From assembly GCF_013315695.1 (NCBI RefSeq), contig NZ_CP054353.1: a DNA stretch of 64,000 nt. The stretch is one strand, 5' to 3'. The notes under the pieces were generated by a model. It was given only the letters and a program-made list of their open reading frames with translations. It ran no database searches and was not told the origin of the DNA. Position numbers and translations under genes: made by a program. This document shows, in pieces, positions 1 to 10,663 of this stretch. Every line of letters starts with the position of its first letter. Positions within the stretch are counted from its first letter, which is position 1. The DNA comes from Escherichia coli (lineage in GTDB: Bacteria > Pseudomonadota > Gammaproteobacteria > Enterobacterales > Enterobacteriaceae).

Positions 1-459
1 ATCTCCTGGCTCAATGGTTGGACACATACTGTCCCCACGAACGTTGATAACTTTAATGTGATTTGCTGGTCGTCCACCAAACATCGATACAGCATTATCA
101 GTTCTGTATTCAATGGCATGAATCACATCAATGACATCACCGCCCTGGATAAGGCCATTTCCCGCACTGGCACTGACATCCAGCATTTCAATACGGAATA
201 CATCCTTCACCTGCGTAACATCCTCACTAATACTGTTTTTACATACAGTATTACTTTTGAGGTCTGAGGTAAAGAGATCAGCAATATCAACACCTAAGCT
301 CCTGGCAATATTACTCAGGGCTTGTTCAGTGAATTGTTTCTGCTTACCTGTTTCGAGGCGCGAGATATTCGCCGCATCCACTCCTATTGCTTCAGCGAGA
401 TCGGCGATTTTCATGTTCTTCGCCTGGCGAAGTTGTCTGACTCGATTTCCTATGTTCAT
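1..459 (-). CDS. cI-like prophage repressor (HTH plus S24 LexA-like peptidase domain); N-terminus in window, C-terminus runs off the 5' edge
   Basis: Minus-strand translation from ATG at 459 gives MNIGNRVRQLRQAKNMKIADLAEAIGVDAANISRLETGK (XRE HTH) and later ...VINVRGDSMCPTIEPGD (S24 Ser motif GDSM). Divergent from a cro-like gene. Confidence 0.8.
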   Translation of the reverse strand, partial: MNIGNRVRQLRQAKNMKIADLAEAIGVDAANISRLETGKQKQFTEQALSNIARSLGVDIADLFTSDLKSNTVCKNSISEDVTQVKDVFRIEMLDVSASAGNGLIQGGDVIDVIHAIEYRTDNAVSMFGGRPANHIKVINVRGDSMCPTIEPGD

Positions 460-817: not shown

Positions 818-1367
818 GCATCATTGGAAAGTGGAAAAACAGCCTGAGTGGTACGTGAAAGCTGTCAGAAAAACTATCGCGGCGTTGCCGGGGGGTTACG
901 CTGAAGCTGCTGAGTGGCTGGATGTAACAGAGAACGCATTATTCAACCGCCTTCGTGCAGATGGCGATCAGATTTTCCCGCTGGGATGGGCAATGGTTTT
1001 ACAGCGTGCGGCTGGCACTCACTACATTGCGGATGCTGTCGCACAGTCTGCTGGTGGGGTGTTCGTATCGCTTCCTGAAATTGAGGCAGTAGAGAACGCC
1101 GATATAAACCAGCGCCTGCTGGAAGTCATTGAACAGATCGGCAGTTATTCCAGACAGATTCGTTCAGCAATCGAAGACGGTGTAGTGGAACCGCATGAGA
1201 AGACAGCAATTAACGACGAACTGTATCTTTCAATTTCGAAGCTCCAGGAGCATGCAGCACTGGTCTACAAAATCTTCTGCGCTCCAGAAAAGAGTAACGC
1301 CCGCGAGTGTGCAGCTCCGGGCGTCGTGGCGTCGATTGCTTCTGGTTGTGGAGAAACTAACGCATGA
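810..1367 (+). CDS. Early-region hypothetical protein in the cII position (possible CII-like regulator)
   Basis: 185 aa ORF, GTG start overlapping cro stop, preceded by GGAGG; function inferred only from position. Confidence 0.45.
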   Translation: MGKHHWKVEKQPEWYVKAVRKTIAALPGGYAEAAEWLDVTENALFNRLRADGDQIFPLGWAMVLQRAAGTHYIADAVAQSAGGVFVSLPEIEAVENADINQRLLEVIEQIGSYSRQIRSAIEDGVVEPHEKTAINDELYLSISKLQEHAALVYKIFCAPEKSNARECAAPGVVASIASGCGETNA

Positions 1368-2509
1368 ATAGTTTAACGGCAAATAACCGTTTGTCGCAAC
1401 AGCTGGTGGTCAGCGTCGCTGAACACCTGTTGTTACGGCATGAATGCAGATTACCAAATCACCTGGCTGTAAGTAACCACAGAGAACTTTACCTGACTGT
1501 GGGGGGCGAGTTGTGCAGGAACTTAACCGCTGGTTTCGTGACGGAAGAGGGCTTTATGTCCATGTTATTCGTTGGGAGCCAGAAACACAGCGCGTTATCT
1601 ATCTTCGCAAAGACTACCCGCATGAGTGCTTTAGTCCTTTGTGGAAATTCAGGCGTGATTTTGTTGAGTGTGAAGGACCACCAGCATATTGATTCTGCAA
1701 TTCCGGGACGTTACACTGTTCAGGCACCTTATAAAGCGGGTGCCGGGATTGGCGTCCTGAAATTCGCACATGCGCATAACCGCGCTTCAGCGGTTTTTTT
1801 GCGCACGTTTCCTCACATCCAAATTATGGTGGGGCGTGCAGGGGCATCGAAAGATGCGCCGGGGTCATGTGCGACCGGTTACGCCAACCCTGTACGTCTC
1901 ACCACCTCTGTGATTGGCGTCCCATGTGGTGAGTTTTCAAAATTCGCACATGAGGATGTCACTATGGCAACCACCCCTACCCAAACTCACCCTAAAATTG
2001 ATGTTATCCATGGGAAGGCTGTTACCTCTTCTTTGGCCGTTGCCGAATATTTCTGCAAGCAGCACAAAAACGTTATTCAAAAAATCCAGACGCTTGAGTG
2101 CTCTGTTGAATTCACTGAGCTGAATTTTCAGCCCAGTGATTACACCGATTGCACAGGCCGCAAACTCCCTTGTTACCAAATCACCCGCGACGGTTTTGCG
2201 TTTCTTGCCATGGGCTTCACGGGGAAACGTGCTGCCCGGTTCAAAGAGGCATACATCAATGCCTTTAACCAGATGGAGAAACAGCTTTCAAATCCCTCTG
2301 TACTGAGCGACGTTGCACATAACGCCAGCGTTCTCTATTCCTACATTTCATCAATTCATCAGGTCTGGCTGCAGCAGCTTTATCCTATGTTGGCAAAAGC
2401 CGAATCTCCGCTGGCTGTTAGCTTGTATGACTATATTAATGATGCTTCGGCGCTGGCCTGCCTCATAAATTTGTCGCTGAATCCTTCAGAGGTAAGGGGG
2501 CGTAAATGA
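1364..2509 (+). CDS. Rha-family phage regulatory protein, copy 1 (Rha core from ATG 1964; N-terminal extent uncertain)
   Basis: C-terminal 180 aa carry Rha signatures (KIDVIHGKAVTSSLAVAEYFCKQHKNVIQKI ... FLAMGFTGKRAARFKEAYINAFNQME). ATGA overlap with upstream stop at 1364; internal ATG 1964 has a GAGGA RBS. Confidence 0.6.
   Translation: MNSLTANNRLSQQLVVSVAEHLLLRHECRLPNHLAVSNHRELYLTVGGELCRNLTAGFVTEEGFMSMLFVGSQKHSALSIFAKTTRMSALVLCGNSGVILLSVKDHQHIDSAIPGRYTVQAPYKAGAGIGVLKFAHAHNRASAVFLRTFPHIQIMVGRAGASKDAPGSCATGYANPVRLTTSVIGVPCGEFSKFAHEDVTMATTPTQTHPKIDVIHGKAVTSSLAVAEYFCKQHKNVIQKIQTLECSVEFTELNFQPSDYTDCTGRKLPCYQITRDGFAFLAMGFTGKRAARFKEAYINAFNQMEKQLSNPSVLSDVAHNASVLYSYISSIHQVWLQQLYPMLAKAESPLAVSLYDYINDASALACLINLSLNPSEVRGRK
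1513..1692 (+). CDS. Small hypothetical protein (59 aa, GTG start), paralog of ORF 3384..3608; overlaps the copy-1 Rha upstream frame
   Basis: Frame-1 translation VQELNRWFRDGRGLYVHVIRWEPETQRVIYLRKDYPHECFSPLWKF... looks protein-like and shows DNA and protein similarity to 3384..3608 (HVLRV...QKVI); GGGGGG RBS-like run before the GTG. Confidence 0.3.
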   Translation: MQELNRWFRDGRGLYVHVIRWEPETQRVIYLRKDYPHECFSPLWKFRRDFVECEGPPAY

Positions 2510-3387
2510 TCCGGAATATTTTCAAACTGTTTACCAATCGCCACCAGCATATTGATTCTGCAATTCCGGGACGTTACACTGTTCAGGCACCTTATAAAGC
2601 GGGTGCCGGGATTGGCGTCCTGAAATTGTCAACGGCGATGTATGACGCGCCAGCGTCTTTTTTATCGTCCGCATTTGCTCACATCCAGATTATGGTGGGC
2701 TGGGCGGGGGCACCGAAAGGTGCGCCGGTCTCCGTTGACGCCGGTTACGCCAACCCCGTCCAGTTCACCACCAGTGAAATTGGCGTTTCCGGTGGTGGAA
2801 GTTTTTCACTGTCAACGGAGGCTGCCATCATGGCTACGATCCCAGCCCTCACTCAACCTGAAATCACCATTGACAACGGCCAGGCCGTTACCACTTCTTT
2901 GGCTGTTGCCAACTTCTTCTCCAAGCGTCACGACGATGTGCTGAAAAAGATCCGCACTCTGGATTGTTCCCCTGAGTTTTGTGCCCGCAATTTTGCGGAG
3001 ACATCGATTTCGGTAAATCAACCGAACGGTGGTACACGCAAGCTCCTTTGCTATCAAATCACACGAGACGGTTTTGCGTTTCTTGCTATGGGTTTCACGG
3101 GTAAACGTGCTGCCCGGTTCAAAGAGGCATACATCAATGCCTTTAACCAGATGGAAAAACTGCTTTCAAAGCCATCCACGCTGAGCGATGCCGCAGATAA
3201 CGCCAGCGTGCTTTACTCCCACCTGTCGGTAATCCACAAGGTCTGGCTGCAGCAGCTTTATCCCATGTTGGCAAAAGCCGAATCCCCGCTGGCTGTAAGT
3301 CTGTATGACCGCATCAACGACGCGGCGCTACTGGCCAGTCTCATAAATTTGTCGCTGAACCCTTCAGAGGTAAGGGGGCGTAAATGA
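2506..3387 (+). CDS. Rha-family phage regulatory protein, copy 2 (tandem paralog)
   Basis: 293 aa; Rha motifs AVTTSLAVANFFSKRHDDVLKKIRTL and FLAMGFTGKRAARFKEAYINAFNQME; ATGA start overlapping the copy-1 stop. Confidence 0.7.
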   Translation: MIRNIFKLFTNRHQHIDSAIPGRYTVQAPYKAGAGIGVLKLSTAMYDAPASFLSSAFAHIQIMVGWAGAPKGAPVSVDAGYANPVQFTTSEIGVSGGGSFSLSTEAAIMATIPALTQPEITIDNGQAVTTSLAVANFFSKRHDDVLKKIRTLDCSPEFCARNFAETSISVNQPNGGTRKLLCYQITRDGFAFLAMGFTGKRAARFKEAYINAFNQMEKLLSKPSTLSDAADNASVLYSHLSVIHKVWLQQLYPMLAKAESPLAVSLYDRINDAALLASLINLSLNPSEVRGRK

Positions 3388-4423: not shown

Positions 4424-4914
4424 TCATGAGTCTTTTGAATGAAGTTCAGAAATTCATTGAAGCCCATCCGGGCTGTACTTCCGGAGACATTGCGGATGCT
4501 TTTGCTGGTTACTCACGGCAGCGCGTTCTGCAGTCAGCAAGCAAGTTACGTCAGAGTGGGCGTGTGGCTCACCGTTGTGAAGGAGATACACGCAGACATT
4601 TCCCACGCCTGACTGAGAGAGCGCAGGATCCGGAACCACAACCAGTTCGTGAAACCAGACCTGTGCGCAATTTCTATGTCGGCACTAACGATCCCCGTGT
4701 GATTTTGTGCCTGACCCGCCAGGCTGAAGAACTGGAGTCCAGGGGCTTATACCGTCGTGCTGCAACGGTGTGGATGGCGGCATTCCGTGAAAGCCACTCC
4801 CAGCCAGAACGAAACAATTTTCTGGCACGTCGTGAGCGGTGCTTACGGAAAAGCAGCAAGCGCGCTGCATCGGGTGAAGAGTGGTATCTGTCAGGGAATT
4901 TCGTGGGGGCTTAA
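4420..4914 (+). CDS. Hypothetical protein with PerC/Pch-like C-terminal motif
   Basis: 164 aa; C-terminal LESRGLYRRAATVWMAAF...RRERCL resembles the PerC-family GLWRRAA..W...RR..C signature; ATGA-coupled to neighbours. Confidence 0.45.
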   Translation: MIMSLLNEVQKFIEAHPGCTSGDIADAFAGYSRQRVLQSASKLRQSGRVAHRCEGDTRRHFPRLTERAQDPEPQPVRETRPVRNFYVGTNDPRVILCLTRQAEELESRGLYRRAATVWMAAFRESHSQPERNNFLARRERCLRKSSKRAASGEEWYLSGNFVGA

Positions 4915-5567
4915 TGAGTAATAAATATTGCCAGGCGCTGGTGGAACTGCGGAACAAACCAGCCCATGAACTGAAGGAAGTGGGCGATCAGTGGCGCACG
5001 CCGGACAACATTTTCTGGGGAATTAACACCCTGTTTGGCCCGTTTGTTCTGGATCTGTTCACTGACGGTGATAACGCCAAATGTGCTGCGTATTACACTG
5101 CGGAAGACAACGCGCTGGCGCATGACTGGTCTGAACGTCTTGCGGAGCTTAAAGGTGCTGCCTTTGGTAATCCCCCGTACAGCCGCGCCAGTCAGCATGA
5201 GGGGCAATACATCACCGGCATGCGTTACATCATGAAACATGCCAGTGCCATGCGTGATAAAGGCGGGCGCTATGTTTTCCTGATCAAAGCTGCCACCAGC
5301 GAAGTGTGGTGGCCGGAAGATGCAGATCATATTGCTTTTATTCGCGGGCGTATTGGTTTTGAACTGCCTGCCTGGTTTATCCCGAAAGACGAAAAGCAGG
5401 TGCCAACAGGTGCTTTCTTCGCTGGTGCTATTGCTGTTTTCGACAAGACCTGGAAGGGACCGGCAATCAGCTACATAGGGCGCGATGAACTTGAGGCATG
5501 TGGTGAGGCGTTTCTGGCGCAGGTTCGCCAGCAGGCGGAAAAACTGGTCAGGGAGATGGCGGCATGA
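4914..5567 (+). CDS. Phage-type DNA N6-adenine methyltransferase (Dam family)
   Basis: 217 aa from ATG 4914 (TAATG overlap); catalytic NPPY motif (AAFGNPPYS); typical lambdoid nin-region gene. Confidence 0.8.
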   Translation: MSNKYCQALVELRNKPAHELKEVGDQWRTPDNIFWGINTLFGPFVLDLFTDGDNAKCAAYYTAEDNALAHDWSERLAELKGAAFGNPPYSRASQHEGQYITGMRYIMKHASAMRDKGGRYVFLIKAATSEVWWPEDADHIAFIRGRIGFELPAWFIPKDEKQVPTGAFFAGAIAVFDKTWKGPAISYIGRDELEACGEAFLAQVRQQAEKLVREMAA

Positions 5568-5890
5568 CGACGTTAACTCAATGCCAGCAGCAGGTGCTGG
5601 ATATGCTGATTTCTTATCAGAAAGAACGTGGCTTCCCGCCAACCAATCAGGAGGTGGCAACCATGCTGGGATACCGTTCGGTGAATGCAGCGGTGGAGCA
5701 TCTTCGCGCACTGGAGAAAAAAGGCGTCATCACGATAAAGCGTGGCGTGGCCCGGGGGATAACGCTTCATACTGCGATGAAGGACGACGACAGCGAGGCG
5801 GTCGGGATTATCCGCGCACTGCTTGCCGGTGAGGAAAACGCAAGGCTGCGTGCAACCCACTGGTTACATGAGAGGGGCCTGAAAGTATGA
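5564..5890 (+). CDS. LexA DNA-binding-domain-like protein lacking the S24 peptidase domain
   Basis: 108 aa; QQQVLDMLISYQKERGFPPTNQEVATMLGYRSVNAAVEHLRALEKKGVI parallels the LexA N-terminal winged helix ([50 protein letters not shown]). Confidence 0.75.
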   Translation: MTTLTQCQQQVLDMLISYQKERGFPPTNQEVATMLGYRSVNAAVEHLRALEKKGVITIKRGVARGITLHTAMKDDDSEAVGIIRALLAGEENARLRATHWLHERGLKV

Positions 5891-6282
5891 AGCTAATACT
5901 GCCTTTTCCGCCCAGCGTGAACACGTACTGGCGACACCCCAACAAAGGGGCGTTTGCTGGTAAGAGCCTGATAAGCGCGGCGGGGCGAAAATTCCAGAGC
6001 GCGGCGTGTGCAGCAATAGTTGAGCAGTTACGTCGTCTGCCGAAACCAACGTCGGCACCTGCTTCAGTGGAGATCGTGTTGTTTCCTCCGGATAACCGGA
6101 TCCGCGATCTGGACAACTATAACAAGGCGCTGTTTGACGCCCTGACCCACGCGGGTGTGTGGGAAGACGACAGTCAGGTGAAAAGAATGCTGGTGGAGTG
6201 GGGACCGGTTATCCCGGAGGGGAAGGTCGAGATCACTATCAGTAAGTACGAAAAAGCGAGTTGCAAATTAGCAACTCGGTAA
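5887..6282 (+). CDS. rusA: RusA Holliday-junction resolvase
   Basis: 131 aa; characteristic DLDNYNKALFDALTHAGVWEDDSQV; ATGA coupling. Confidence 0.85.
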   Translation: MKLILPFPPSVNTYWRHPNKGAFAGKSLISAAGRKFQSAACAAIVEQLRRLPKPTSAPASVEIVLFPPDNRIRDLDNYNKALFDALTHAGVWEDDSQVKRMLVEWGPVIPEGKVEITISKYEKASCKLATR

Positions 6283-6444
6283 CGGAATTGAGCAACACCC
6301 TAAATTTGGGTATTACCTCGTTAAAGATACTGTATTTATGAACAGTGTATCCTTGATAACTATTAAAAATCGCAGTAAGTTCATCCTGCATCAACGAAAA
6401 GGGAGTGCAGTCCCGCTCGTGGATAAAAATTTGTGGAGAAACCA

Positions 6445-7260
6445 ATGAATCAGTTGCTTGTAATTGATGGCGTTTCTGTGCGCCAGTACTTCGAATCTAA
6501 CTACTGTCTTAACGACCTTCAGAAAGCTGCTCTTCTTGCCGCTGGTGAGAATCGCTCCTCCCGTTCGCTGGAAGTTCACGAGTTTATGCGTCGTCCTGAA
6601 ACGAAGGCTCTTGTGGAATTATTGGAAGAAGAAACTACGGGAGATTCCCGTAGTATTCCTGTCATCACCATTCAGGGGCGCAATGGTGGGACGTATGTCT
6701 GTAAAGAGCTGGTCTATGCATATGCAATGTGGATCAGCCCGGCATTCAGCTTAAAAGTGATACGTACTTTTGATGCGCTTCATAATTCATCACCAGAAGA
6801 AACCACATCCGACAAAATTAAATCCGGGGTCATTCTGCTTGAATCAGCAGCAAAGACTCTAAATCTGTCAAACTCCTCGAAACTTGGTGCATACCAGAAA
6901 TTATCAAAGGTAGCTGGTCTTCCTGAACTTATGCCGATCTATGCCATTGATGCACCTGCTGATGCGCCAGATGGTTCAAGCCGCCCTACGCTGTCGCTGA
7001 GTGCACTGCTGAAGCAGTATGGTATCCGCCTGACGGCTAATCAGGCATATCACCAGATGGCGAAGCTGGGGATCGTTGAACAACGCGAACGATACAGCCG
7101 TACCGCGATTAACAACATCAAAAAATTCTGGTCGCTGACCGCGAAAGGCTGCATGTTCGGCAAGAACATCACCAGTCCTGCAAATCCGCGCGAGACGCAG
7201 CCGCATTTCTTCGAATCCCGATTTCCTGAGCTGTTAAAGCTGCTCGATACCGTTCATTGA
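6445..7260 (+). CDS. KilA-N domain protein
   Basis: KilA-N signature GGTYVCKELVYAYAMWISPAFSLKVIRTFD; ATG 6445 preceded by GGAG (ORF track begins at GTG 6433). Confidence 0.6.
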   Translation: MNQLLVIDGVSVRQYFESNYCLNDLQKAALLAAGENRSSRSLEVHEFMRRPETKALVELLEEETTGDSRSIPVITIQGRNGGTYVCKELVYAYAMWISPAFSLKVIRTFDALHNSSPEETTSDKIKSGVILLESAAKTLNLSNSSKLGAYQKLSKVAGLPELMPIYAIDAPADAPDGSSRPTLSLSALLKQYGIRLTANQAYHQMAKLGIVEQRERYSRTAINNIKKFWSLTAKGCMFGKNITSPANPRETQPHFFESRFPELLKLLDTVH

Positions 7261-7261
7261 G

Positions 7262-8257
7262 GTGACTGTGAGAGCACTACTGACCCCTGAAATTGCCCCG
7301 CGTATGGGGATCGTATTGTTCAGGCCAGGTTCAGAGCTGATGCCCCTGTTTATGCAGGGGCGTGTCCTGCTGGAGCCTGAGCCGGAGCGTTATTCATCTT
7401 TCGCCAGTGGTGCCGTTCCGGCGGCATCACAACCGCTGGCGGATGATCCTGCCGTTCGGGCCGTGTTCCGCCATGAGGCAGTGATCCGTCGTGCTGGTGG
7501 CGTGGAATGTCTTGAAAGCTGGTTACTTCGTGAAAAAGGCTGCCAGTGGCCTCATTCCGGATGGCACAGCGAGAACATGACCACAATGCGACACGCTCCG
7601 GGTGCAATCCGTCTGTGCTGGCACTGCGATAACCAGCTGCGCGATCAGTTCACGGAACGGCTGGAATCAATGGCAACGGATAACTGTGCCCGCTGGGTGT
7701 TGTCTGTTGTGCGTCGGGATCTCGGTTTTGATGACAGTCACGTTGTGACAATGCCGGAACTGTGCTGGTGGCTGATTCGTAATGACCTGGCGGATGCCTT
7801 ACCGGAAAGTGCAGCCCGTAAGGCACTGAGATTACCGAAGCCTGTTGTGCCGTCTGTCACCCGGGAAAGTGACCTTGTGCCTTCGGTTCCTGCCACCAGC
7901 ATCATCCAGGATAAAGCGAAAAAGGTGCTGGCGCTGAAAGTGGATCCGGAGTCGCCGGAGTCTTTTATGTTACGCCCCAAACGTCGCCGCTGGGTTAATG
8001 AAAAGTACACGCGCTGGGTTAAGACGCAGCCGTGTGCATGTTGTGGAAAGCCTGCTGATGATCCCCACCACCTGATAGGCCACGGTCAGGGGGGAATGGG
8101 TACAAAAGCGCATGACCTCTTCGTGCTGCCTTTGTGCAGAAAGCATCACGACGAGCTGCATGCGGATACCGTGGCATTTGAAGAGAAGTATGGCTCCCAG
8201 CTGGAGCTGATATTTCGTTTTATCGATCGTGCGCTGGCAATAGGCGTGCTGGCCTGA
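7262..8257 (+). CDS. DUF968-family prophage protein (YdfU-like) with C-terminal Cys/His cluster
   Basis: 331 aa; C-terminal ...TQPCACCGKPADDPHHLIGHGQGGMGTKAHDLFVLPLCRKHHDELH; common in Rac/Qin-type nin regions. Confidence 0.6.
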   Translation: MTVRALLTPEIAPRMGIVLFRPGSELMPLFMQGRVLLEPEPERYSSFASGAVPAASQPLADDPAVRAVFRHEAVIRRAGGVECLESWLLREKGCQWPHSGWHSENMTTMRHAPGAIRLCWHCDNQLRDQFTERLESMATDNCARWVLSVVRRDLGFDDSHVVTMPELCWWLIRNDLADALPESAARKALRLPKPVVPSVTRESDLVPSVPATSIIQDKAKKVLALKVDPESPESFMLRPKRRRWVNEKYTRWVKTQPCACCGKPADDPHHLIGHGQGGMGTKAHDLFVLPLCRKHHDELHADTVAFEEKYGSQLELIFRFIDRALAIGVLA

Positions 8258-8274
8258 TTTTGTGGAGAAAGTTG

Positions 8275-8646
8275 ATGCGTGATATTCAAATGGTTCTTGA
8301 ACGTTGGGGGGCATGGGTGGCAAATAATCACGAGGATGTGGAATGGTCATCTGTTGCTGCAGGTTTTAAGGGATTAATTCCTTCGAAAGTAAAATCCCGC
8401 CCGCAATGTAGCGATGACGATGGCCTGATCATTAGCTCTGCGATGACAGTTCTTAAGAAAAAGGAACCGTATCAATACGAATTACTGGAAATGTATTATG
8501 TGTATGGGGTTACATTACGGGTGTTGGGGGTAAAACTGGGGATATCACTTAATCAGGTTGTTATCAGACTGCAGAAAGCTGAAGGGTTTATTGACGGTTG
8601 TCTGGCAATGTTGGGGGTATCTTTAGAAATTGATTGTTACATATAG
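8275..8646 (+). CDS. Late-gene antiterminator Q (QuuD-like)
   Basis: N-terminus MRDIQMVLERWGAWVANNHEDVEWSS matches the QuuD/DLP12-type Q family; sits directly upstream of the late region; GGAG RBS before ATG 8275. Confidence 0.75.
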   Translation: MRDIQMVLERWGAWVANNHEDVEWSSVAAGFKGLIPSKVKSRPQCSDDDGLIISSAMTVLKKKEPYQYELLEMYYVYGVTLRVLGVKLGISLNQVVIRLQKAEGFIDGCLAMLGVSLEIDCYI

Positions 8647-9949: not shown

Positions 9950-10663
9950 ATGGCTGTTGTCTGTTCAGTTATCATGGTTTGCTCCCCAATTAATATTTTT
10001 CTTGAAAAGGATACGTTGTCACTTAAGCCAGGCTCAGTTGTTCTGGCCACCAAATGCATCAGGGAGCTTTTCCTTATGCATTATGGCAAAGTTAAAATTG
10101 TCGATATAAGCGAATCCGTCGTAAGTCAATATCTGGAAAGTCAGCATAAGCTGACGAGGACTCGTCTGACTGACATTCCGCTTTACCTGTTGCTGGAACC
10201 CAACAATCCTGCGTTGGCTGCGGCTTTAATTACCAGCCAGGGATTTTCCGGAGAGGCCACGGATATGTTTCTTATGATGGCCTGCCTGTCTCTGTTTGAA
10301 ACAGATGAACGGATGTCATTGTTTTTAAGTGGATGTTTATCCAGCATAAGTGCCAAAGTCAGGGCGATAATTCAGACAGATATATCAGCAAGCTGGACGC
10401 TTGGTGCGATTGCTCTACAGTTGCATATGAGTGAGAGTTTGTTAAAGACAAAACTGAAAAATGAAGGGGGCATGTTCAGTCGCTTGTTGCTGGAAGAGCG
10501 GATGCGTGTTGCTGTAAATATGTTATGTTCCCGGCATGGATATGGACAGGCTATAGCAGAAAAATGCGGTTATTCAAGCAGGTCCTACTTTATTTCTGTA
10601 TTTCACCGCTATTATGGCTTCCCGCCAGACAGATATGTATCCAGGCAAGGGCTTGATTATTGA
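9950..10663 (+). CDS. AraC-family transcriptional regulator (prophage-encoded; start uncertain)
   Basis: C-terminal AraC-type HTH (WTLGAIALQLHMSESLLKTKLKNEGGMFSRLLLEERMRVAVNML...GYSSRSYFISVFHRYYGFPPDRY). Confidence 0.7.
   Translation: MAVVCSVIMVCSPINIFLEKDTLSLKPGSVVLATKCIRELFLMHYGKVKIVDISESVVSQYLESQHKLTRTRLTDIPLYLLLEPNNPALAAALITSQGFSGEATDMFLMMACLSLFETDERMSLFLSGCLSSISAKVRAIIQTDISASWTLGAIALQLHMSESLLKTKLKNEGGMFSRLLLEERMRVAVNMLCSRHGYGQAIAEKCGYSSRSYFISVFHRYYGFPPDRYVSRQGLDY

Follow-up and report, generated by a model that had tools for sequence, protein, structure and literature searches.

A prophage-borne, protease-free LexA DNA-binding-domain protein of Escherichia coli as a possible RecA-insensitive repressor of SOS-box promoters

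The 64,000-nucleotide stretch of Escherichia coli DNA analysed here (NCBI RefSeq assembly GCF_013315695.1, contig NZ_CP054353.1; hereafter, the window) includes a 42-kb prophage, whose early-right operon encodes a LexA-like protein of 108 amino acids. Judged by its sequence, this is a stand-alone LexA DNA-binding-domain protein without the autoprotease; it is not LexA itself, because the defining protease domain is absent. The best reading of the evidence, to which we assign a probability of about 0.45, is that of a RecA-insensitive LexA surrogate, which re-represses SOS-box promoters; the DNA binding and dimerisation that it requires are inferred. The observation behind the first-pass annotation of this DNA was confirmed, and its interpretation was partly supported. 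The C-terminal tail of the protein and its near-constant linkage to rusA, both described below, are absent from that account.

Residues 1-65 of the protein match model positions 1-65 of 65 in the Pfam family LexA_DNA_bind (PF01726, E=3.8e-19), and E. coli LexA 2-70 (1LEA/3JSO) aligns with phage residues 2-70 without gaps (phmmer, E ~1e-15). The AlphaFold model, with a predicted local distance difference test score (pLDDT) of 83.5, was matched by Foldseek to DNA-bound LexA 3JSO with a root-mean-square deviation (rmsd) of 1.0 Å over 67-68 residues at 50-51% identity. The modelled winged helix comprises helices 6-22, 28-35, and 40-52, and strands 56-58 and 66-68. Peptidase_S24, the home of the Ser119/Lys156 dyad, had no Pfam match in the protein, which stops at residue 108. 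Its score against the LexA equivalog TIGR00498 (70.4) is below the cutoff of 110.95, with profile positions 1-91 of 203 being covered. Both the alignment along the LexA N-terminal winged helix and the lack of the S24 peptidase/dimerisation domain, as seen in the first pass, were therefore borne out. PHROG 362 was matched end to end (protein 1-108 vs profile 1-106 of 106, E=1.2e-59); its name, 'transcriptional repressor', is an annotation label and not an experimental function. The PADLOC defence-system models gave no real match, only a marginal one to CARF3 in the winged-helix region (E=4e-4), and membership in a defence system was rejected.

According to a secondary account of the LexA-DNA crystal structure, the main base contacts are made by S39, N41, A42, and E45 (PMC11442139). 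An older contact list adds E44 (PMC3091678), while a third source describes R28 as a backbone contact and specific binding as being abolished by E45K (bioRxiv 10.1101/2020.07.14.201889). The recognition helix of the phage protein, RSVNAAVEHL (R38-L47), is the equivalent of LexA 38-47. In the alignment, S39, N41, A42, and E45 are all identical to those of LexA, as are the wing residues K53, R64, and G65. S39 is invariant and N41 nearly invariant throughout the family.

In place of the protease/dimerisation domain of LexA, the protein has a tail, which opens with an acidic linker (KDDDSE; low model confidence at about residues 70-76) and continues with two AlphaFold-predicted helices at about residues 73-88 and 93-103. 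The tail consensus across the family is EAVxxIRALLAGExxARxRAxxWLxxRG, and residues A97 and L101 are invariant in relatives down to 39% identity. This tail is a candidate dimerisation or partner-binding module. A Foldseek search for its fold returned nothing reliable, namely weak, high-rmsd matches to regulators of the MntR, MarR, and DtxR types. The hidden Markov model (HMM) alignment to LexA runs on through the hinge (positions 71-91) and places the phage segment LLA88-G89E against the scissile VAA84-G85E of LexA (window 5825-5831, codons 88-90, A-G-E). Since the homology reaches approximately LexA position 91, beyond the scissile bond, the gene looks like a lexA that lost what follows the cleavage site and has been remodelled since. 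Distant family members do not retain the Ala-Gly pair, which was therefore treated as a relic, and a cleavage-site remnant as the function of the family was rejected.

The gene is intact and under selection. All 82 loci examined contain the complete 327-nucleotide open reading frame (ORF). Their 46 nucleotide alleles encode only 14 protein variants, residues 1-70 being invariant save K20Q, and the pooled ratio of non-synonymous to synonymous polymorphism (pN/pS) over the 46 alleles is 0.07. This purifying selection excludes a non-functional relic. More than 3,000 clustered members are 104-108 amino acids long, and a full-library HMMER search revealed stand-alone distant homologues of 106-135 amino acids down to ~40% identity. 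Longer versions are rare singletons, which result from read-through from Dam or into rusA. The first-pass annotation had named one finding that would speak against it, i.e. that the ORF is a fragment of a longer gene in related phages; with 82 of 82 ORFs intact and family lengths of 104-135 amino acids this was rejected, and the hypothesis stands.

Copies at ≥90% identity were identified in 2,232 of 5,426 complete E. coli genomes, with up to four per genome. Phage copies were found in 50 records, including SfV (orf42), SfIV, mEp460 ("LexA DNA binding domain protein"), and Stx2c-converting phages. Copies that are 100% identical, in E. coli O104:H4 and other strains, are annotated as "LexA family transcriptional regulator". 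Being widely annotated already, the gene is not a new discovery. Our literature search, whose coverage excluded most subscription journals, retrieved no functional study of the enterobacterial protein. Public data also contain proteins with two tandem LexA DNA-binding domains and no S24 domain (P0132, P0133, P0147, P0148, and P0153). These look like single-chain pseudo-dimers and represent another protease-free design of a LexA-type operator-binder.

The prophage is enriched in canonical SOS boxes. The motif CTGT-Nx-ACAG was counted for x=0-20, and only the N8 spacing was enriched, with 5 perfect boxes vs 0.55 expected both in this prophage and in phage mEp460. Another half-site spacing, as for a differently built dimer, was thus not supported, and no alternative conserved palindrome was identified. 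A weight matrix made from ~26 E. coli boxes, in which known sites score 12.3-26.9 bits (median 20.2), detected 5 sites of ≥12 bits in the 42-kb prophage vs 0.33 expected, two of them above 22 bits (Table 1). The search of the prophage for SOS boxes that had been proposed in the first pass therefore gave a positive result. The same matrix found no SOS box upstream of the LexA-like gene in the window. Lambda, HK97, and 933W, three controls only and all without the LexA-like gene, have no site of ≥16 bits. These three phages share a weak LexA-like palindrome, TACTGGATC[TA]ATC[AC]ACAGGA (12.8-15.5 bits), at the cII/O junction (lambda, L218, 38660; HK97, L219, 29694; 933W, L220, 13530), which is probably unrelated to LexA.

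The box in the rusA/kilA-N spacer is located ~440 bp downstream of the LexA-like stop codon. With its offset unchanged, it recurs in the O104:H4 prophage and in 14 of 80 related viral loci; mEp460, where the spacer is 19 bp, lacks it. As read by eye, it overlaps a weak promoter-like sequence, TGAACA-17-TATTAA, which suggests a LexA-controlled promoter able to drive kilA-N, DUF968, and Q independently of pR. The site after Q recurs in 4 of the 80 loci. In mEp460, the equivalent of the two dinI-like boxes is also a pair, with higher scores (22.6 and 21.9 bits).

The exact box inside cI occurs in at least 120 viral contigs. A diverged cI in locus L083 (loci are cited by L numbers) keeps a box, TACTGTTTATAAATACAGTA, at the same place (2838-2857) although the amino acids of the linker differ. 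Among the viral contigs with a cI-internal box and enough flanking sequence, 28 of 32 also carry the LexA-like gene, at a spacing that varies from ~2.5 to 5.5 kb. The cI-internal box might hinder the transcription of cI as a roadblock, or act as an internal promoter from which a fragment with the C-terminal domain only is made.

The 80 related viral loci contain 0.09 perfect boxes per kb. Box positions that recur in them are inside cI, upstream of kilA-N, and before a methylase gene downstream of Q. The latter box, TACTGTAAAAATAAACAGTG (~21-24 bits), stands ahead of an N6/N4 DNA methylase gene or at its start (10739-10758 in L092; 41021-41040 in L002, i.e. mEp460). It was detected in ~28 of the 80 loci at +3.9 to +4.8 kb from the LexA-like gene, and it is not in this window; such an arrangement would be an SOS-controlled methylase moron. 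A universal cis operator beside the LexA-like gene was not found, since the recurrent boxes occur in 14-39 of 80 loci only. The first Rha gene of the window contains a perfect CTGT-N8-ACAG at 1467 (CTGTAAGTAACCACAG), which scores <12 bits and is unlikely to be a LexA site.

A distant clade with ~40% identity offers the strongest contextual evidence for a function of the family in the SOS circuit. In four loci of this clade (L092, L093, L216, and L217), the operon that contains the LexA-like gene is headed by a strong canonical SOS box (20-27 bits) at a sigma-70-like promoter (Table 1). Each of these operons also includes a conserved small ORF of 75-82 amino acids (phrog_1813). In three of the four, the exception being L092, the LexA-like gene is followed by an ORF of 66-67 amino acids (in L093, phrog_1212). 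Just ahead of its SOS-box promoter, L093 has a terminator-like hairpin. Selection appears to maintain SOS control of this operon, given that the loci differ both in box sequence and in their first genes. L092 and L093, the two loci extending as far as the immunity region, encode short helix-turn-helix (HTH) repressors that lack an S24 domain, which suggests that induction proceeds through an antirepressor under LexA control; the phrog_1813 ORF is a candidate for it. The boxes, together with the dinI and RecA_C-like neighbours, fit a role in SOS tuning.

The early-right operon of the window prophage has the gene order cro-like, ymfL, two Rha-family genes, O-like replication gene, PerC-like, Dam, LexA-like, RusA, 150-bp spacer, KilA-N, DUF968/HNH, and Q. 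The stop codon of Dam (TGA, 5565-5567) overlaps the start of the LexA-like gene (ATGA), and the stop codon of the latter overlaps the rusA start (GTATGA). The Dam/LexA-like junction is the same in most of the 82 loci, while in a second junction type the gene comes after a PerC-like gene. No promoter-like site adjoining the LexA-like gene was found in the window. Given the position of its gene inside the pR operon, the LexA-like protein should belong to the delayed-early products, whose synthesis follows induction or infection, and should not be made in the quiescent lysogen. The LexA-like gene is immediately followed by rusA in 82 of 82 close loci. In eight of the nine distant lineages (L083, L084, L087, L089, L092, L093, L215, and L217) rusA follows directly or one gene later; it is absent in L216. 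DUF968 comes after rusA in every distant locus that reaches far enough. The block order, i.e. replication/methylase, LexA-like, rusA, antirepressor-like (in some lineages), DUF968, and Q, is kept at 39-67% identity, with the surrounding replication and immunity modules being exchanged between lineages.

The cI repressor with an S24 domain and the DinI-like RecA modulator, which the first pass had placed at opposite ends of the prophage, were both recovered (Table 1). A full-length cI homologue in L083, 66% identical, has HTH_3 and Peptidase_S24 domains. The O104:H4 prophage, collinear in other respects, lacks the second Rha paralogue (882 bp). The end of the window prophage is near 41.7-42 kb, adjoining btsS/yehU. 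On the host side, an SOS-box-like site (TCCTGTAATTTTATCCAGTT, 19.2 bits, 59223-59242) was detected just upstream of a host gene for a protein of 715 amino acids (57068..59215, minus strand).

Table 1. Features of the LexA-like gene, its prophage, and the SOS-box operons of the distant clade. Coordinates are those of the window, except where a locus is named.
Feature	Coordinates	Strand	Details and basis
LexA-like gene	5564..5890	+	ATG start; 108 amino acids; 327 nucleotides, stop codon included in coordinates
LexA-type winged helix-turn-helix, residues 1-70	5564..5773	+	LexA alignment; Foldseek to 3JSO
Acidic linker and two-helix tail, residues 71-108	5774..5887	+	AlphaFold secondary structure; family consensus
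Shine-Dalgarno GGGAG	5551..5555	+	8 nucleotides ahead of the LexA-like ATG; read from sequence
Phage N-6-adenine methyltransferase (Dam)	4914..5567	+	PHROG 111; annotation of identical O104:H4 prophage
RusA Holliday-junction resolvase	5887..6282	+	ORF call; O104:H4 annotation
KilA-N domain protein, antirepressor-like regulator	6433..7260	+	PHROG 129, E=4e-109; annotated KilA-N
DUF968/HNH protein, nin-like region	7262..8257	+	PHROG 96
Q-type late antiterminator, end of early-right operon	8260..8646	+	PHROG 79, E=2e-44; annotated
cI-like repressor, HTH and start of S24 domain	1..459	-	Cut by window start; translation; PHROG 4, 35195
DinI-like RecA-filament modulator	41366..41614	-	PHROG 189, E=6.7e-26
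Two adjacent Rha-family paralogues, antirepressor-like	1364..2509, 2506..3387		PHROG 821
SOS box TACTGTTTTTACATACAGTA	231-250		Inside cI linker codons between HTH and S24; 25.2 bits, near-consensus
Canonical SOS box TACTGTATTTATGAACAGTG, candidate cis target	6328-6347		150-bp rusA/kilA-N spacer; 22.3 bits
SOS-like site AAGTGGATGTTTATCCAGCA	10327-10346		Inside or near ORF 9950..10663, after Q; 16.8 bits
Two tandem SOS boxes	41628-41647, 41657-41676		Just upstream of dinI-like start codon; 17.5 and 16.7 bits, respectively
Distant-clade operon, L092	7561-8357 (L092)		Box 27.2 bits; small ORF, LexA-like, RusA, DUF968, Q
Distant-clade operon, L093	7560-8408 (L093)		Box 20.3 bits; small ORF, LexA-like, 67-amino-acid ORF, RusA, DUF968, Q
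Distant-clade operon, L216	513-1518 (L216)		Box 27.1 bits; DinI, small ORF, LexA-like, 67-amino-acid ORF, DUF968, Q
Distant-clade operon, L217	4907-6070 (L217)		Tandem boxes 25.8 and 17.1 bits; RecA_C-like ORF (95 amino acids), small ORF, LexA-like, 66-amino-acid ORF, RusA, DUF968

As a RecA-insensitive surrogate of LexA, the protein would act in the following way. The tail would dimerise it, and the dimer would bind canonical CTGT-N8-ACAG boxes. Having no protease domain, it could not cleave itself on RecA*. The LexA 1-84 fragment reportedly exposes a degron for ClpXP; this should stay unexposed in the phage protein, because its 'LLA' is internal and not C-terminal. The protein would be made once the prophage is induced or is infecting, and in the distant clade directly from the SOS-controlled promoter. 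Repression would then be re-imposed on SOS-box promoters when the host LexA has already been destroyed. The first targets would be the boxes of the phage itself, namely those at the kilA-N-DUF968-Q promoter, at the dinI-like gene, and inside cI. Probable further targets would be the SOS regulon of the host and those functions of rival elements that LexA controls. The overall device would be a shut-off, or negative feedback. The N-terminal fragment of LexA binds DNA 10-1000 times more weakly, and its degradation by ClpXP is needed for full derepression (PMC11442139). This residual binding, and the need to remove the fragment, make it plausible that a stable dimeric version would repress. The first-pass annotation had also considered a dominant competitor; if heterodimers with LexA are meant, this is unlikely because the LexA dimerisation domain is absent.

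Several points weigh against repression of SOS boxes by this protein. The weight matrix was built from an informal collection of E. coli sites, and the control set consists of three phages only. No SOS box is universal near the gene: none was found in 12 of 35 fully covered loci, and the lineages L084, L087, and L089 lack one within several kb. An essential target, if any, would therefore have to be in another part of the phage or on the chromosome of the host. A linker-fused dimer run in AlphaFold gave a predicted template-modelling score (pTM) of 0.39 and was uninformative with regard to dimer geometry. In the phage protein, E44 of LexA is replaced by V and R28 by N. Position 45 is Glu in most family members and G, D, L, or I in some, for which reason DNA specificity may differ, or drift, within the family. 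The conservation of DNA-contact residues that had been proposed as a check thus holds for S39, N41, A42, and E45 in the window subfamily, but not for E44 and R28, nor for E45 in some relatives.

These substitutions bear on an alternative in which the protein controls phage transcription through a diverged operator of its own, either as an activator or as a repressor, for example at a promoter of the nin, Q, or late region. The precedent, which also counts against binding to canonical boxes, is gp6 of GIL01, a truncated LexA with GaCACAnnTGTGaC as its recognition site, which activates the late promoter P3 (PMC6182141). The loss of R28, a position 44 that is never Glu, the variation at positions 42-45 between members, and the many carrier loci without a canonical box nearby agree with a changed specificity. 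We nevertheless consider it unlikely, given that the window subfamily keeps all four crystal base contacts with residues 1-70 nearly invariant, that no half-site spacing besides N8 is enriched, and that no conserved alternative palindrome was identified. Moreover, late control of the lambdoid type is already supplied by Q, and the LexA-like protein has no detectable similarity to gp6.

Even less probable is an accessory DNA-binding protein of the recombination module (RusA plus DUF968/HNH), with a part in targeting or modulating junction resolution instead of regulating transcription. Such a role could be indicated by the near-constant adjacency to rusA, where the stop and start codons overlap, and to DUF968, which always follows; to that extent the adjacency speaks against an SOS function. 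The free swapping of upstream replication and immunity modules around the conserved block also agrees with a recombination role. On the other hand, L216 has the LexA-like gene without rusA, and across the same loci RusA is 70-91% and the LexA-like protein 44-67% conserved, which fits simple co-inheritance of a nin-region block. The retained sequence-specific contacts and the distant-clade neighbours (SOS box, dinI, RecA_C-like) also point to the SOS circuit. Finally, the LLA88-G89E segment might serve as a decoy or pseudo-substrate that engages, in trans, either RecA* or the protease cleft of LexA, cI, or UmuD, so that their cleavage is slowed. The HMM alignments that cover LexA 71-91 and match A88-G89 to the A84-G85 scissile bond are compatible with this, and the same phage encodes DinI, another RecA* modulator. 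This explanation is very improbable: distant members do not share the Ala-Gly pair, the segment has a predicted helical structure, unlike the strand-loop of LexA, and the strongest conservation, at residues 1-70, would be left unexplained.

Among known systems, the protein resembles the LexA N-terminal domain, and LexA(1-84), in fold; over residues 2-70 the identity is ~50%, with unchanged numbering and without indels, and S24 is absent as in the cleavage fragment. It differs from LexA(1-84) in being gene-encoded as such, rather than a cleavage product, and in having a conserved helical tail of 38 residues. By analogy with the non-cleavable (Ind-) LexA mutants G85D and S119A, repression at SOS boxes would be expected not to be relieved by RecA*. 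Fusions of LexA's DNA-binding domain to foreign dimerisers repress sulA reporters in LexA-based bacterial two-hybrid systems. The phage protein is the product of a natural gene with the same build, DNA-binding domain plus putative heterologous dimeriser, and would dimerise and repress likewise. DinI-like proteins, plasmid PsiB, and GIL01 gp7, too, are encoded by mobile elements and dampen or remodel the SOS response of the host; these act on RecA filaments or on the LexA protein, whereas the LexA-like protein would act at DNA operators. A dinI-like gene is present in the same prophage and, in L216, dinI is located in the same operon upstream of the LexA-like gene. Arc of phage P22 is a small repressor made in lytic growth, which turns the ant antirepressor promoter off again. 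It would be a functional analogue only: its fold (ribbon-helix-helix) is unrelated, and it uses a dedicated operator instead of borrowed host SOS boxes.

The closest parallel is gp6 of the Bacillus tectivirus GIL01, also a phage-encoded LexA winged helix without protease, encoded in an early operon of an SOS-inducible temperate phage (PMC6182141). In contrast to the enterobacterial protein, gp6 is a tail-less protein of 66 amino acids derived from Bacillus-type LexA, which binds a diverged site and activates a late promoter. The enterobacterial protein has E. coli-type contacts, a tail, a lambdoid nin-like region as its genomic setting, and late control by Q. A BLASTP comparison of the LexA-like protein with GIL01 ORF6 (66 amino acids) produced no alignment at E≤100. 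Because of this lack of sequence similarity and the different architecture, homology to gp6 and membership in its family were rejected at the sequence level. As far as sequences can tell, the LexA-like protein is of the same kind as gp6, a phage-borne truncated LexA, but of independent origin from a gammaproteobacterial LexA.

A broader version of the operator-surrogate reading is more speculative, and we regard it as doubtful. Lambdoid prophages in ~40% of E. coli genomes, including Stx2c-converting ones, would encode an uncleavable LexA surrogate that closes the SOS regulon again inside the induced cell. The surrogate would shut the phage's own antirepressor/Q promoter, which LexA controls, and silence host SOS functions along with the LexA-controlled functions of competing prophages, colicin plasmids, and SOS-induced toxins. 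This would amount to a general strategy of 'anti-SOS at the operator', and the distant clade would combine SOS-induced negative feedback with DinI or a RecA_C-like protein.

Repression of SOS-box promoters by a LexA surrogate is a specific, plausible, and easily testable proposal, with a protein of 108 amino acids and candidate operators at hand. If SOS boxes are not bound, the protein would be an ordinary uncharacterised DNA-binding protein of the nin region. If they are bound, a natural RecA-proof LexA would be present in a large fraction of the prophages of E. coli and Shigella, toxin-converting ones among them. The course of SOS induction in lysogens exposed to DNA-damaging antibiotics would then be altered, with possible effects on how long the response lasts, on mutagenesis, on the induction of co-resident prophages and colicins, and perhaps also on the output of Shiga toxin.

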